Below are positions 19,199-32,000 of a stretch of DNA of 32,000 bases, piece after piece. Below the pieces are notes generated by a model. That model was not told the origin of the DNA. It did no database searches and saw only the letters and a program-made list of their open reading frames with translations. The position numbers were made by a program, and so were the translations under genes. The first letter of the stretch is position 1. Every line of letters begins with the position of its first letter. Source of the stretch: an uncultured bacterium (GTDB lineage: Bacteria > Margulisbacteria > WOR-1 > CAVSGV01); the NCBI GenBank assembly GCA_963699255.1, contig OY969425.1, positions 1,470,001 through 1,502,000 of the forward strand, given 5' to 3'.

Positions 19199-20092
19199 AT
19201 GTCAAAGCCCCGGAAAAAATTCGATGAACTTGTCAGGATCGTCCGCCGCCTCAGGGCCAGGAACGGATGTCCCTGGGACAGGGTGCAGACCCACGCTACG
19301 CTTAAACCGTACATGGTCGAAGAGGTCTATGAGGCCCTTGAGGCCATAGATCTCAAGGATCACAAAAAACTTGCCGAAGAACTCGGCGACATGCTTCTGC
19401 ATGTGGTCATGCAGGCGGAGATCGGGCGGGAGAAGAAAGAGTTCACGCTTGATGATGTCATCGATTCAATATCCGCAAAAATGATAAGGCGTCATCCCCA
19501 CGTTTTTTCAAATAAAAAGGTAAGATCGGTCGAAGAAGTCTGGCAGAAGTGGGAGGAGATCAAGGGGAAGGAAAAGGCGGGAAAAGGGGAAGAACATAAG
19601 GGAATATTGGAAAGCGTGCCTCAATCGCTGCCGGCGCTGTATCGGGCCGATAAGGTCCAGCGGAGGGCCGCAAGGGTGGGGTTTGACTGGAACAGCATCG
19701 CAGGAGCATGGAGAAAAGTTCACGAGGAAGAAAAAGAAGTGCAAACGCTCCTGCGAAAATCCAAAATCCAAAGCTCAAAATCCAAAATAAATCTCAAATC
19801 TAAAACTCCAAAAGCCAAACAAAAAGAGAGGATCAAAGAAGAATTAGGGGATTTACTATTTGCGATAGTCAATGTATCAAGAAAACTTGATATCGATGCC
19901 GAGGAAGCCCTTCAGGACGCAACTTCGAAATTCATGAGGCGGTTCAAAGGGATAGAGCTTCACGCCAGGAAGTCGGGGCGCCACATCAGCAAGCTGACCC
20001 TTCCGGAAATGGATAAGGTATGGGAACAGGTCAAAAAAGACGAGATGAGACCCGCCTGCGCCAAGGCTTCGGCGGGCAGGGATGGGAGATGA
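19199..20092 (+). CDS. mazG: nucleoside triphosphate pyrophosphohydrolase MazG (two-domain form)
   Basis: 297-aa ORF with GCPWD, EE.YE...A, EELGD.L and RRHPHVF in domain 1, and LPAL..A.K.Q...A.VGFDW, EELGDLLFAIVN and KF.RRF in domain 2. Confidence 0.9.
   Translation: MSKPRKKFDELVRIVRRLRARNGCPWDRVQTHATLKPYMVEEVYEALEAIDLKDHKKLAEELGDMLLHVVMQAEIGREKKEFTLDDVIDSISAKMIRRHPHVFSNKKVRSVEEVWQKWEEIKGKEKAGKGEEHKGILESVPQSLPALYRADKVQRRAARVGFDWNSIAGAWRKVHEEEKEVQTLLRKSKIQSSKSKINLKSKTPKAKQKERIKEELGDLLFAIVNVSRKLDIDAEEALQDATSKFMRRFKGIELHARKSGRHISKLTLPEMDKVWEQVKKDEMRPACAKASAGRDGR
19756..19825 (+). repeat. degenerate A-rich short-period repeat (aaaatcca / aaatctca type) in frame inside mazG
   Basis: It encodes RKSKIQSSKSKINLKSKTPKAKQKE, between the EE..E and EELGDLLF motifs of MazG domain 2. 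That interval looks clearly shorter in MazG proteins as I recall them. Confidence 0.7.
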
Positions 20093-23002: not shown

Positions 23003-25705
23003 ATGAGCGAAGAATTATCTAAAATATATGAGCCGAAAATCGTTGAGGAAAAATGGTATAAGATATGGGAAGAGAACGGTTATTTTGCTCCCGATGAATC
23101 CTTAAAAACCCCGCCGTTCGTCATCGTGATCCCGCCTCCGAACGTTACCGGTTCGCTTCACATGGGTCACGCGCTTGATAACACGATCCAGGATATCCTT
23201 ATCAGGTTCAACAGGATGAAGGGTATGAGGGCGCTGTGGGTACCCGGAACGGACCACGCCGGCATCGCGACGCAGAACGTGGTGGAGAAGGAACTGGCCA
23301 AGGAGAAAAAGAGAAAAGAGGATATCGGCAGGGATAAGTTCATTGAGATGGTCTGGAAATGGAAGGAGAAGTTTGGCGGCCAGATAACGCTGCAGCTGAG
23401 GCGGCTGGGCGCATCGTGCGATTGGAAGAGGGAGCGCTTCACGATGGATGCGGGTCTTTCCCGCGCTGTCAGAAAAGCTTTTGTTTCACTGTATAACGAC
23501 GGGCTCATTTACCGCGGAAAAAGGATAATCAACTGGTGCCCGAGATGCAAAACAGCAATCTCGGATATCGAAGTGGAATACACGGAAGAGAACGGCAAAC
23601 TCTGGCACCTGAAGTATCCTGTCGAGGGGTCGAATGAATTCGTTACTGTTGCCACCACAAGACCCGAGACGATGCTCGGAGATACTGCCGTTGCCGTCAA
23701 TCCATCGGATGCGAGATACAAACGTTTTATAGGCAAGATGCTTGTTCTTCCGCTTGTCGGAAGAAGGATACCTGTGATAAAGGACGACTTTGTCGATCCA
23801 ACTTTTGGGACCGGCGCGGTCAAGGTCACTCCCGCCCATGACCCGAATGACTATGAGATAGGGCTGCGGCACAATCTCCCCCAGATAATAATGATGCATC
23901 CCGACGGGAAGGCCCATGTCAGCCATTTCCCGAAAGAAGAACAAAAAGAGATCGCCTCATATGAGGGGGTCGACCGGTTCAAGCTGAGGGATATCATCGT
24001 GGCTGACCTTGAAAAGGGCGGATATCTGGAAAAGATCGAGGACTACAAGAACAAGATCGGCAGATGCTATCGATGCAAAACTCTCATCGAGCCTTATCTC
24101 TCAGACCAGTGGTTCGTCAGGATGAAAGACCTTGTCAGGCCGGCCATACAGGCCGTTGAAGACAAGAACATCCGGTACATTCCCGACCGCTGGACAAAGG
24201 TTTACTTAAACTGGATGGAGAACCACCGTGACTGGTGCATATCCAGACAGATATGGTGGGGGCACCGCATTCCCGCTTGGGAATGCAAATCCCAAATCCC
24301 AAATCCCAAATCCCAAACAAATCCCAATGACCAAATCCCAAATCCCAAAAAGGGCTGCGGAAACATCATCGTTTCGGAAGAAGCTCCGACAAAATGCCCG
24401 AAGTGCGGCGGAACGAATTTAGTCCAGGATCCGGATGTACTGGATACTTGGTTCTCATCGTCGCTCTGGCCGTTCTCGACCCTTGGCTGGCCCGAACAAA
24501 CCAAGGACCTAGAGACATATTATCCGACAACTGTTTTGGTTACCGGATATGACATTATCACTTTCTGGGTTTCAAAGATGATCGTTATGGGCCTGAAGTT
24601 CATGAAGAAAGAGCCTTTCTCAAAGATATTCATTCACGGCCTGATAAGGGATATTACGGGCAAGAAAATGAGCAAATCGATCGGCAACGTGATAGATCCT
24701 CTGAACGTCATAGACAGGGTAGGGGCTGACGCGCTCCGCTTCTCCCTGATATCGCTGATCTCCGGACAGGGGCAGGATATCAAGTTGTCCGAAGAAAAGA
24801 TCACCGAGGGCCGCAACTTCAGCAATAAGATATGGAACGCGGCAAGGTTCATATTGGGGAAGGTATCGGGTATCAGGCATCAGGGATCAGGGTTTGCGGA
24901 CAAATGGATATTGAGCAGATATAACAAGATGATCAATGAGATCACTGAAAAACTGGAGGAATTCGACCTTGGGGAAGCCGCGAGAAAGCTTTATGATTTC
25001 ATCTGGAGCGATTTCTGCGACTGGTACCTGGAAATGTCGAAGGTCGACGCATCCGAAGAGGTCCTGTTGGAAGTTTTTGAGGGCACAATGAGGCTGTTAC
25101 ATCCGTTCATGCCTTTCATCACGGAAGAAATATGGCAGAAGTTAGAGATCAGAGATAAGAGATCAGAGATTGGAAACGCGAAACATGATAAGACGATAAT
25201 GCTTTCCCACTGGCCGAAGGCGGACAAGTCCTTGATCAATGAGAACATCGAGGATGAAATGGCCGTTGTTAAAGAGATAGTCAGGACGATAAGGAACATC
25301 AGGGCCACCTTGAACATTCCGCATTCAAAGGAACTTACCGCGTATATTTCGACGGGAAAGAAGATCGGCGCTGACCAGGTGAAATACCTGACATCGCTCG
25401 CGAGGCTCGAGAAGCTGGATATATCTTCAAAAACAAGCACAAAGATAGAAGGATCAGCAACAGCTGTCCTTCCAGACATAACCATTCATATTCCGCTCAA
25501 GGGCATAATCGACCTGAACAAGGAAGTTGACCGGCTTAAGGAAAAGATCGTTAAACTTGATGAGGAGATCGATAAAGTAAGACAAAGATTATCGGCGAAC
25601 AATAACGTTCCCGAGGACGTCCTGGATGAGTGGAAGGGCAGGGAGCAGGAGTTCTTAAAGCAGAAAGAAACGCTTCAGGACCAGATCAAGTCTCTGACCG
25701 CGTAA
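23003..25705 (+). CDS. valS: valine--tRNA ligase
   Basis: 900-aa ORF with HIGH-type motif (PNVTGSLHMGHAL), TRPET, KMSKS, an editing domain and a C-terminal coiled coil. Confidence 0.95.
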   Translation: MSEELSKIYEPKIVEEKWYKIWEENGYFAPDESLKTPPFVIVIPPPNVTGSLHMGHALDNTIQDILIRFNRMKGMRALWVPGTDHAGIATQNVVEKELAKEKKRKEDIGRDKFIEMVWKWKEKFGGQITLQLRRLGASCDWKRERFTMDAGLSRAVRKAFVSLYNDGLIYRGKRIINWCPRCKTAISDIEVEYTEENGKLWHLKYPVEGSNEFVTVATTRPETMLGDTAVAVNPSDARYKRFIGKMLVLPLVGRRIPVIKDDFVDPTFGTGAVKVTPAHDPNDYEIGLRHNLPQIIMMHPDGKAHVSHFPKEEQKEIASYEGVDRFKLRDIIVADLEKGGYLEKIEDYKNKIGRCYRCKTLIEPYLSDQWFVRMKDLVRPAIQAVEDKNIRYIPDRWTKVYLNWMENHRDWCISRQIWWGHRIPAWECKSQIPNPKSQTNPNDQIPNPKKGCGNIIVSEEAPTKCPKCGGTNLVQDPDVLDTWFSSSLWPFSTLGWPEQTKDLETYYPTTVLVTGYDIITFWVSKMIVMGLKFMKKEPFSKIFIHGLIRDITGKKMSKSIGNVIDPLNVIDRVGADALRFSLISLISGQGQDIKLSEEKITEGRNFSNKIWNAARFILGKVSGIRHQGSGFADKWILSRYNKMINEITEKLEEFDLGEAARKLYDFIWSDFCDWYLEMSKVDASEEVLLEVFEGTMRLLHPFMPFITEEIWQKLEIRDKRSEIGNAKHDKTIMLSHWPKADKSLINENIEDEMAVVKEIVRTIRNIRATLNIPHSKELTAYISTGKKIGADQVKYLTSLARLEKLDISSKTSTKIEGSATAVLPDITIHIPLKGIIDLNKEVDRLKEKIVKLDEEIDKVRQRLSANNNVPEDVLDEWKGREQEFLKQKETLQDQIKSLTA
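24287..24352 (+). repeat. (AAATCCC)4 AAAC AAATCCC AATGACC (AAATCCC)2 tract in frame within valS
   Basis: Read directly. It encodes KSQIPNPKSQTNPNDQIPNPKK between Cys codons at 24284 and 24356. Confidence 0.9.
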
Positions 25706-26495
25706 TATCCCCAAGATCGCTAATTATCTTTTGAACCCTTTTGATATCCTTGGCCTTTCCGCTGTCATCAATGTCAATGAACACCCCGTTGAACAGCCCT
25801 GGGCCTTTATCTTCCGGCTCGAACCGCTCCGGAATGGACAAAAGGAACCTCTTGATTATCTGTTCCTTCTGCACGCCGATTATTGAATCGTACGCTCCAA
25901 CCATTCCCGCGTCCGTTATAAAGGCCGTGCCTTTAGGCAGGATCCTTTCATCCGATGTCTGGATGTGGGTGTGAGTGCCGATGACCACGGAAACTTTTCC
26001 GTCCATGTACCAGGCGAGCGCGTTCTTTTCGGATGTTGCCTCCCCGTGAAGATCGACCAGTATTATCGGTGTTTCGGCCTTCATTTTTGATGCGATGGAA
26101 TTCGCCGCCTGGAACGGGCAGTTCACGCAGGACATGAACACTCTTCCCAGCAGGTTCATGACGCCGTACTTGACCCCGTTCGCCGAGAAAACATCGAAGC
26201 CCTTTCCCGGAACGCCCTCAGGGTAATTCGCCGGCCGCACGAGGTTCGGGCACGAAGAAATGTCCGGAAGGAATTCTTTCCTGTCCCAGATATGATTCCC
26301 CGTTGTTATGACATCGATGCCCATGTTCATGAGCTCGTCGTAAACTTTTTTGGTTATCCCCACACCCGCGGCGGAATTCTCGCCGTTGGCTATGACAACA
26401 TCCGGCAGGAGCTCTTCCCTGAGTTTCGGGAGCAGGTTCCTTACGATGGCGCGTCCCGGCCGCCCAACAATATCCCCTATGAAAAGTATCTTCAT
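25686..26495 (-). CDS. ymdB: YmdB-like metallophosphoesterase (2',3'-cyclic-nucleotide phosphodiesterase family, TIGR00282-like)
   Basis: 269-aa ORF with [38 protein letters not shown] and GTHTH. It overlaps the rny stop by 4 nt. Confidence 0.85.
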
Positions 26496-30309: not shown

Positions 30310-30817
30310 TTAGCGACTCCAAATTTTTAATGAAATATTCGATCCCTGAAACCACGGCCAGGATAACGCCGAGCCATAAGACCTGGTTCCCGTAGGGCAG
30401 GTTCAGGATCAGCATCGCGACCGCCACATCCAACAGCGCTGTTTTGTATTTCCCAAGCCTGTCGGCAGCAATTATCTTGCCGGACGAACTCGCGGCGAGC
30501 CGCAGTCCCGTAACCGCAAAATCCCTTACGATGATCACAATTACCGGTACGGACGACACCCATCTGATCTCCACCAGGCAAAGGAGAGCAGATATGACAA
30601 GTATTTTATCTGCAAGAGGGTCCATGAATTTACCCATCACAGTTTCCTGCTTGAGCCTTCTTGCAAGGTAGCCATCTATCGCGTCGGAAACCGCTACAGC
30701 GGCGAAGATCACTACAGCAATGATGCTACCATTGGGAATATTAGGCGAGAGCAGAACATAGACCAGGAGGGGGATAAATATTATTCTTAAAAAAGTTACC
30801 GAATTCGGCAGGTTCAA
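30302..30817 (-). CDS. pgsA: CDP-diacylglycerol--glycerol-3-phosphate 3-phosphatidyltransferase
   Basis: 171-aa polytopic ORF with the CDP-alcohol phosphatidyltransferase motif DAIDGYLAR...G...DPLADK. Confidence 0.9.
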   Translation of the reverse strand: MNLPNSVTFLRIIFIPLLVYVLLSPNIPNGSIIAVVIFAAVAVSDAIDGYLARRLKQETVMGKFMDPLADKILVISALLCLVEIRWVSSVPVIVIIVRDFAVTGLRLAASSSGKIIAADRLGKYKTALLDVAVAMLILNLPYGNQVLWLGVILAVVSGIEYFIKNLESLNG

Positions 30818-32000
30818 GTAACCAGGATACCGGAAAGATCATACGGGCCTGACCCCGTGATTTTTACCGAAACTATCTTTCCGTTCGGAACACATTTATT
30901 CAGCTTAACAACGCCGTCGATATCCGGCGCATCCATGTATGAGCGCCCGATACTTCCTTCTGCCAATACCTTGATAATTTTTCCTGCCATGTTCTTTAGA
31001 GACTTTGCAGAAATCTCGCGTTGCAAGCGCATTAACTTATGAAACCTTCGATCCTTTATCCGTTCGCCAATTTGATCCCCCATTTTGGCGGCGGGAGTAC
31101 CTGATTCCCTGCTGTACTTGAAAACCCCTAGTCTCTCAAACCTCTCTTCCCTGATAAATGCAAGTAATTTATTAAAATCGGAACCTGTTTCGCCTGGAAA
31201 ACCGACGATCACTGAAGTCCTTATCGCTATCCCCGGTATTTTCCTCCTTAGTTTTTTGATTACCCGTTTAAGTTGATCTGCGGATATCCTCCGCCTCATT
31301 AGCCGAAGAATCCTATCACAGGAATGCTGGATTGGCAAGTCCAGATATCGGCATATCTTGGGCTCTTTTGCCATCACTTCGATCAGCTCGTCCGTCACAT
31401 GGGCGGGATGCGCGTACATGATGCGGATCCACTTAAGACCCTTGATCCCGGCCAGTTTCCTGCATAATATATGTAAAGAGGGCTTTCCATAGATATCCGT
31501 GCCGTACATTGTCGTGTCCTGGGCGACCAGAATGGCCTCCTTCAATCCCTTTTTAACAAGGGCTTTGACCTCGCTGACTATCGATGGCATCGGGCGGCTC
31601 TGGTACTTTCCCCTCAGGCTGGGAACGATGCAGTAGGAGCAACGATTATTGCAGCCGTCGGCTATCTTAATATATGCGTAATATTTGGGGGTTGCTTTAA
31701 GCCTTGGCGTTTTATGGGTGAAAAGGCAGTGAGTTCCCTCAAGGAGCGAAACTCGGAACCTGCGACTAAACGTCGCGGTTCCGGAAGATAGTTTTTTGGA
31801 GCCGCGGCGTTCAGCCGCAGGCTCAGCACATCGGAGCTCGTTTAGTACATGGACTATCCTATCGATCTGGCCAGGGCCGACAATGGCGTCAACTTCCTCG
31901 AATTTATCGAACAGGTCGTTTTTGTCCCTTTTTGGGAGGCATCCGGCGACCACCAGGAACTTCAGCTTCGATGCCTTGGAACCTGCGACTGAAGTCGCGG
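30814..32000 (-). CDS. rimO: ribosomal protein S12 methylthiotransferase RimO (N-terminus outside the window)
   Basis: Radical-SAM motif GCNNRCSYC, an MTTase fold and a C-terminal TRAM domain with APDIDG are present. The frame stays open upstream of the GTG at 31953 to the window edge (..KLKFLVVAGCLPKR), so the true start lies beyond 32000. Confidence 0.85.
   Translation of the reverse strand, partial: ATSVAGSKASKLKFLVVAGCLPKRDKNDLFDKFEEVDAIVGPGQIDRIVHVLNELRCAEPAAERRGSKKLSSGTATFSRRFRVSLLEGTHCLFTHKTPRLKATPKYYAYIKIADGCNNRCSYCIVPSLRGKYQSRPMPSIVSEVKALVKKGLKEAILVAQDTTMYGTDIYGKPSLHILCRKLAGIKGLKWIRIMYAHPAHVTDELIEVMAKEPKICRYLDLPIQHSCDRILRLMRRRISADQLKRVIKKLRRKIPGIAIRTSVIVGFPGETGSDFNKLLAFIREERFERLGVFKYSRESGTPAAKMGDQIGERIKDRRFHKLMRLQREISAKSLKNMAGKIIKVLAEGSIGRSYMDAPDIDGVVKLNKCVPNGKIVSVKITGSGPYDLSGILVT
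31755..31782. repeat. bulged hairpin element H1 (GGAACCTGCGAC TAAAC GTCGCGGTTCC) inside rimO
   Basis: 11 bp of pairing with a single bulged T (31761), read directly. Confidence 0.8.
31798..31824. repeat. bulged hairpin element H2, same family as H1 in inverted orientation
   Basis: The reverse complement, GAGCCTGCGGC TGAAC GCCGCGGCTCC, aligns to H1. Two A-T pairs are replaced by G-C pairs. Confidence 0.8.
31978..32000. repeat. bulged hairpin element H3 (GGAACCTGCGAC TGAA GTCGCGG...), truncated by the window edge
   Basis: The left arm is identical to H1, and the right arm is identical as far as the window extends. Confidence 0.7.

Follow-up and report, generated by a model that had tools for sequence, protein, structure and literature searches.

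The window analysed here is a 32,000-nucleotide stretch (positions 1470001–1502000) of a bacterial genome, G000, that is represented by a single 1.77-Mb contig with 47.5% G+C. At its far end lies rimO, a minus-strand gene whose product matches T. maritima RimO (4JC0). Three short bulged hairpins, H1, H2 and H3 (Table 1), all lie within the one open minus-strand frame of this gene, as a preliminary description of the region had reported, and the peptides they encode are exactly those it quoted; its uniform hairpin length of 27 nt becomes 27–28 nt. H3 runs off the edge of the window, and when its final 4 nt are supplied from the whole genome it proves to be a complete hairpin of 27 nt with a 4-nt loop.

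Table 1. Coordinates of the hairpins, their host genes and the candidate transposase gene. Positions of rimO, H1, H2, H3 and the spacer are those of the window; all others are those of the genome.
Feature	Position	Strand	Description
rimO (host gene)	30814–32000+	−	UPF0004/MTTase N-domain, radical SAM, TRAM; start codon at ~32209, outside the window
H1, A-type REP hairpin	31755–31782	+	GGAACC-T-GCGAC-TAAAC-GTCGC-GGTTCC
H1–H2 spacer	31783–31797		15 nt between convergent hairpins; encodes KKLSS
H2, REP hairpin	31798–31825	−	(T)GAGCC-T-GCGGC-TGAAC-GCCGC-GGCTCC
H3, solo A-type REP hairpin	31978–32004	+	GGAACC-T-GCGAC-TGAA-GTCGC-GGTTCC
mtaB (methylthiotransferase)	760678–762015		B/A doublet at 761250–761318, in loop GINLGEY...LLIDKL
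Candidate tnpA (Y1_Tnp)	1290785–1291165	−	Bracketed by inverted hairpins
A-type hairpin beside tnpA	1290679	+	~80 nt past the stop codon
B-type hairpin beside tnpA	1291175	−	10 nt ahead of the ATG

Folded as single-stranded DNA, all three hairpins are predicted to adopt the structure drawn in Table 1 (−10.3 to −12.7 kcal/mol, z = −5 to −6.3), and 0 of 200 shuffles equalled the native sequence for H1, H2 or H3. H1 is antisense to rimO, whose frame reads it as GTATFSRRF; H2 is sense and is read as EPAAERRGS; and H3 encodes GTATSVAGS. The family pattern (below) matches the window four times where 0.44 matches are expected. A match with three mismatches at 26425–26440 was put down to chance. An Rfam search of the region matched no credible family, and we rejected a role in transcription termination, given that only H3 read antisense to rimO is terminator-like and no hairpin is so in the sense direction.

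Alignment with orthologues establishes that H3 and the H1–H2 pair are insertions. At the H3 site, orthologues from the same family (84–88% identity) read RLKS-KGKLKF where G000 reads KLK-NGTATSVAGS-KASKLKF, an insertion of the 27-nt hairpin plus 3 nt (net 30 nt). In the linker they read NL-GKQKK-ISLLEG, against NELRCA-EPAAERRGS-KKLSS-GTATFSRRF-RVSLLEG in G000, a net gain of 66 nt that bears out the earlier suggestion that an insertion had lengthened this part of RimO. H3 is absent from all other RimO sequences aligned, and the peptide of the doublet is absent from RimO sequences outside this bacterial family. Aligned to 4JC0, H3 corresponds to a gap after a helix in the N-terminal domain, and the doublet lies between the two domains that match. 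An AlphaFold2 model built on a 22-sequence alignment (mean pLDDT 72.7) predicts both inserts to be coil, with pLDDT <50 at RimO residues 49–53 and 106–125.

The rimO hairpins are members of a real repeat family, which the preliminary description had counted as three copies and which in fact has about 60 clean members in the genome, or about 100 with degenerate ones. Each unit is an imperfect palindrome of 27–28 nt in which an outer stem of 6 bp is followed by one extrahelical T (sometimes C) and an inner stem of 5 bp that carries a TRAA(N) loop, and the family consensus is GGARCC-T-[5 bp]-TRAAN-[5 bp]-GGYTCC. The filtered list from exact and structural scans holds 60 clean copies, and nhmmer gave 100 matches, degenerate and nested copies among them. 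An IUPAC pattern found 52 copies, and the reversed pattern, used as a control, found none. A loose structural scan, which accepted 10 or more of the 11 pairs, gave 349 hits that were for the most part noise and were filtered afterwards. Outer stems in this genome are GGAACC or GGAGCC. The inner stems are of two types, A (GCGAC, or its variants GCGAA and GCGGC) and B (GAGAC, GAGGC, GAGAG and GAGAA).

Many of these units are paired. There are 20 convergent pairs (doublets) with spacers of 8–62 nt and no divergent pairs, and in most doublets one inner stem is of the A type (GCGAC) and the other of the B type (GAGNN). H1 and H2 form one of the 20, so that the earlier view of them as a MITE-like composite of about 70 nt is upheld. 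The same stem variants are found in intergenic copies and next to the transposase gene discussed below. When 25 nt on each side of the copies were aligned, the flanks contained neither a GTAG/CGTC tag nor a strong target motif; the sole signal was at position −3, where 18 of 32 A-type copies have a C.

H1 and H2 differ, as had been noted, by A-T to G-C changes on both arms, at one outer and one inner stem pair. Because our first copy list had itself required pairing, and any covariation in it would be circular, we repeated the analysis on 48 copies picked by their invariant positions and loop only, with no pairing criterion. The covariation holds in this larger set: at the four variable positions of the stem, Watson-Crick pairs occur in 47, 47 (plus one G-T), 48 and 47 of the 48 copies. 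Among the 32 distinct sequences, 96.9% of cells are paired and 5 of the 11 pairs show both-sided change; 0 of 500 shuffles reached the observed pairing, and slid registers came nowhere near it. The preliminary description had taken such changes as a sign that the hairpin itself is under selection. This stands as a constraint on a mobile family; a role inside rimO does not follow from it, since the stem variants are common to intergenic copies and those beside the transposase gene, which points to a constraint on how the hairpin is recognised as it propagates rather than on rimO function.

Several other hairpins and repeats in the genome deserve mention. A third hairpin type, GAAACC-T-GCGRC-ARTATC-...-GGTTTC, occurs at 512063–512091, in the linker of a DJ-1/PfpI-like protein, and at 1292391–1292419, 1.2 kb from the transposase gene; it also lies beside the transposase genes of relatives G001 (L105) and G012 (L102) and in the RimO linker of homologue P0012 (L121). 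Small GC-rich hairpins (CCCAAC...GTTGGGG and CCTGCCCG...GGCGGG) are nested in loops or arms of family members at 993163–993213 and 843734–843790 and in mtaB of G001 (L114), and at one of these TAAAC is duplicated on either side, as if a second tiny element targets the larger hairpins. Copies at 802970–802996, 663122–663189, 843793–843820 and 993243–993270 directly precede hydrophobic segments that resemble signal peptides, and the open frames of these copies encode ...SRRF(R/L); in an LptD-like gene the sole canonical start lies upstream of the hairpin, which may thus encode a charged N-region. The doublet at 1042353–1042417 provides the final 11 codons and the stop codon of an ORF like fumarylacetoacetate hydrolase. 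Finally, dxs contains a 69-nt, in-frame, palindrome-rich insert (377982–378059) with 9-bp direct repeats (TCTCATCTC) at its ends, which includes GTCGCGG..GCTCC, a sequence like half of a family unit.

The genome has a single match to Y1_Tnp (PF01797; 85 bits), a 127-residue candidate TnpA in which HUH (HVH) and tyrosine (RYI) motifs align with those of ISDra2-type TnpA. Its best solved relatives among PDB matches are the ISDra2, Deinococcus and IS608 transposases, and those matches do not include the solved TnpA-REP of E. coli. The protein scores 80.5 bits with the IS200 model NF033573 of NCBIfam (cut-off 55) and 50.5 bits with the curated RAYT model NF047646, which is under that model's cut-off of 80. 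A search of this protein against the named genome collection found no relative.

The candidate gene is bracketed by inverted hairpins of the family, one of each type (Table 1), and related arrangements recur in other genomes. TnpA homologues in G006 and G025 have inverted family hairpins at both sides, that of G001 is flanked on one side by a variant hairpin, and those of G011, G012 and G007 have a hairpin adjoining at least one end. The homologue in G002 (L100, G002:C3:102766–103301) is flanked by two identical hairpins of the B type, whose orientation is direct instead of inverted. Among the 31 relatives searched, 11 have neither hairpins nor a transposase gene, and most of the hairpin-rich genomes possess the gene. 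No homologue was detected in G022, which is 96% complete and has 18 hairpins, or in G004 and G005, both of which are incomplete genomes. By their anatomy the hairpins, an element that the preliminary description did not recognise, belong to a system of the REP/BIME/REPIN type with an associated Y1 transposase, and they have probably spread by means of this one hairpin-bracketed, IS200-type gene.

Of 64 other genomes of this class, 43 contain the IUPAC pattern, and all 81 genomes from the phylum's other classes lack it; the reversed-pattern control gave zero throughout this survey. A named candidate division WOR-1 genome contains two copies of the pattern, and a Verrucomicrobiales MAG and an Epulonipiscium MAG contain none. 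A RimO at 67% identity is labelled Candidatus Margulisiibacteriota, and the host class is probably WOR-1/Saganbacteria (Margulisiibacteriota). Even where RimO identity between genomes is down to about 50%, the hairpin sequence is still recognisable.

Comparison of RimO linkers shows considerable turnover at this site. Among 22 close homologues, 6 have a doublet, 2 have a single hairpin and 14 are empty. In a RimO tree computed without the insert columns, filled and empty alleles are interspersed, with labels clustered no more than shuffled labels are. The doublet-bearing G000 is sister to the empty P0008 and the doublet-bearing P0002 to the empty P0007; P0008 and P0007 (88% and 84% identity) both have the ancestral GKQKK linker. 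The DNA of the filled alleles has two classes of right-hand junction, one in which the hairpin abuts I/V-S codons and another in which remnants of the ancestral RK/EK codons are retained. By lineage the linker hairpins vary in outer stem (GGAACC, GGAGCC or GAAACC) and inner stem (GCGAC, GCGAA or GCGGC); P0012 has a six-base AGTATC loop, and the outer stems of P0002 and P0024 have decayed. The interspersed alleles and the two junction classes point to a permissive linker at which elements have repeatedly been inserted, lost or converted, and not to one element conserved there. A single ancient insertion kept in place was considered as the only history of the site and rejected on the same two grounds.

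The doublet in mtaB, a second methylthiotransferase gene, also shows turnover. G001 has an mtaB doublet with the same junctions as in G000, an expanded spacer and a small foreign hairpin within one arm; what is left in G006 is a decayed remnant, and G003 has no doublet there. An unrelated repeat of the (CAAATCC)n type occupies the MtaB loop in G005 (L109) and the RimO linker in G009 (L009), which suggests that these sites are merely tolerant of insertions. Repeats like (CAAATCC)n also occur inside coding regions of the window, at 19748–19819 and 24286–24363.

We consider it very likely that the rimO hairpins are mobile palindromes of the REP type, moved by a Y1 TnpA and tolerated and translated in loops of the host protein. 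In such a system the hairpins would be mobilised as single-stranded DNA by the only Y1 HUH transposase of the genome, so that the IS200-type gene that they bracket would play a RAYT-like part. Copies that land in coding DNA would persist only where 9–23 extra residues can be accommodated in a frame that remains open. The tolerant sites of rimO would be a loop of the N-terminal MTTase domain, which took up H3, and the linker that precedes the radical-SAM core, which took up H1–H2. The inserts would be translated there as disordered loops, and the RimO that bears them would presumably be functional. Changes in the stems would stay paired because the transposase must recognise a hairpin. We count against this explanation the sub-cut-off RAYT score, the missing tag, the genomes G022, G004 and G005 without a homologue, the hairpin orientation in G002 and the frameshift in rimO.

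That frameshift raises the question of whether rimO is a decaying pseudogene that gathers repeats for want of selection. An extra T in a T run at about 32119–32140 (genome 1502119–1502140; L002:2803–2824), near codon 26, is not present in four orthologues, and as a result of it the frame ends after MKVGVISLGCPKNLTDTEAILGLLIDFGL. The other 443 codons are nevertheless open and 84–88% identical to those of the orthologues, the Cys motifs are intact, and homologues with unbroken frames carry a similar insert (P0002, P0004, P0005, P0012 and P0024). One single frame break also turned up among about 15 other genes compared, at 762806–762840 in the gene downstream of mtaB (L108; tblastn against three relatives), which makes indel errors in the assembly likelier than a pseudogene, and we regard decay of rimO as quite improbable. 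It is exceedingly improbable that the hairpins escape translation, through ribosome skipping of the phage T4 gene 60 or mitochondrial byp type or through excision from the mRNA. Their size of 27–28 nt and their stable, GC-rich stems may recall bypass elements; all intragenic copies, however, are open in the frame of their host gene, the net inserts of 30 and 66 nt are multiples of three, different lineages read the hairpin in different and still open frames (RNRDFSRG versus GTATFSRRF), and no Rfam family matched the region.

The hairpins might instead be kept in rimO and mtaB for a structure in mRNA or DNA at domain boundaries, for example in translation pausing or regulation, with their mobile origin secondary. 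Doublets do sit at loop or linker positions in both genes, and hairpin sequence is present at the same RimO linker in several lineages. Moreover, the hairpins that G000 shares with G001 differ solely by compensatory pairs or a loop base, even though only 6 of 15 positions of the H1–H2 spacer are identical. Those compensatory differences are ordinary variants of the family, however, and identical stem variants occur in intergenic copies. The closest relatives, P0008 and P0007, do without any hairpin at the linker, and elsewhere it has a single hairpin, a decayed stem (P0002 and P0024) or another type of loop (P0012). In mtaB, the copy of G006 has degenerated and G003 has none, and the (CAAATCC)n repeat fills the RimO or MtaB site in other relatives. 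We thus find a structural function very improbable. It is likewise unlikely, if somewhat less so, that the RimO linker and MtaB loop are preferred landing sites for doublets at which the hairpins are actively maintained, by structure selection or by transposase-dependent conversion; if true, this would explain why hairpins are near-identical between genera despite diverging spacers and flanking codons.

Mobile palindromes of this kind have clear parallels. Like the REP/BIME/REPIN and RAYT systems of E. coli, Pseudomonas and Stenotrophomonas, the family is made up of short, imperfect palindromes, tens of them in a genome, which include inverted pairs of two unit types with short spacers between them; as there, one Y1 HUH gene, present once, lies between inverted units of its own family, and inheritance is vertical through a whole clade. 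It differs from them in that its hairpins have no GTAG/CGTC tag, its transposase is an IS200/IS605 TnpA that scores below the RAYT model, and its hosts are an uncultivated class, probably WOR-1/Saganbacteria. Unlike those of REPINs and BIMEs, the doublet spacers vary in length and sequence, so that copying of the doublet as a single unit is not evident. With the IS200/IS605 elements IS608 and ISDra2 it shares a Y1 transposase with HUH and catalytic tyrosine motifs, and what enzymes of the IS608/ISDra2 type recognise in single-stranded DNA is an imperfect hairpin that has extrahelical bases. In contrast to those elements, there is here one gene copy, its flanking hairpins in G000 are on opposite strands, and tens of gene-less hairpins are dispersed in the genome. 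Unlike byp and T4 gene 60, the inserts contain no frame interruption or stop.

The closest parallel to the insertions themselves is with the Rickettsia palindromic elements (RPEs), selfish palindromes that lie in frame in conserved genes and are tolerated as surface loops; here, orthologue alignment places palindromes in frame in the conserved ORFs rimO and mtaB. RPE-1 is about 100–150 bp long, no transposase is known for it, and it is not known outside Rickettsia. The present units, compared with RPEs by description only, are 27–28 nt long, have a candidate transposase and belong to another host clade. In-frame insertion of REPs has also been published and is known, though uncommon, behaviour: REP singles and dimers lie inside genes of Opitutus terrae, Thauera, Rickettsia conorii and others (Di Nocera et al. 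2013, PMC3733652). In that survey, intragenic REPs encode roughly 10–30 extra residues, some ORFs are hit twice at separate sites, REPs are found at the N- and C-termini of ORFs as well, many of the intragenic ones lie in DNA replication and repair genes, and the authors relate them to the RPEs of Rickettsia (PMC3733652). The clear internal cases here are, by comparison, two radical-SAM methylthiotransferases, and we document presence/absence polymorphism and repeated use of one linker (cf. PMC3733652). What is specific to the present family is an untagged hairpin, an IS200-type partner, restriction to one class with a conserved hairpin, and a reused, polymorphic linker in RimO.

These findings give the element in rimO a name and place its compensatory changes in the biology of mobile elements, not in that of a new structured RNA within the gene. 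They extend REP/RAYT-like systems to an uncultivated class, probably WOR-1/Saganbacteria, with an IS200-type enzyme as the partner. For annotation they mean that the hairpin inserts are not novel protein motifs and that N-terminal extensions containing them need checking. The filled, empty, single and decayed alleles of the RimO linker form a natural series on how mobile palindromes enter and leave essential genes.
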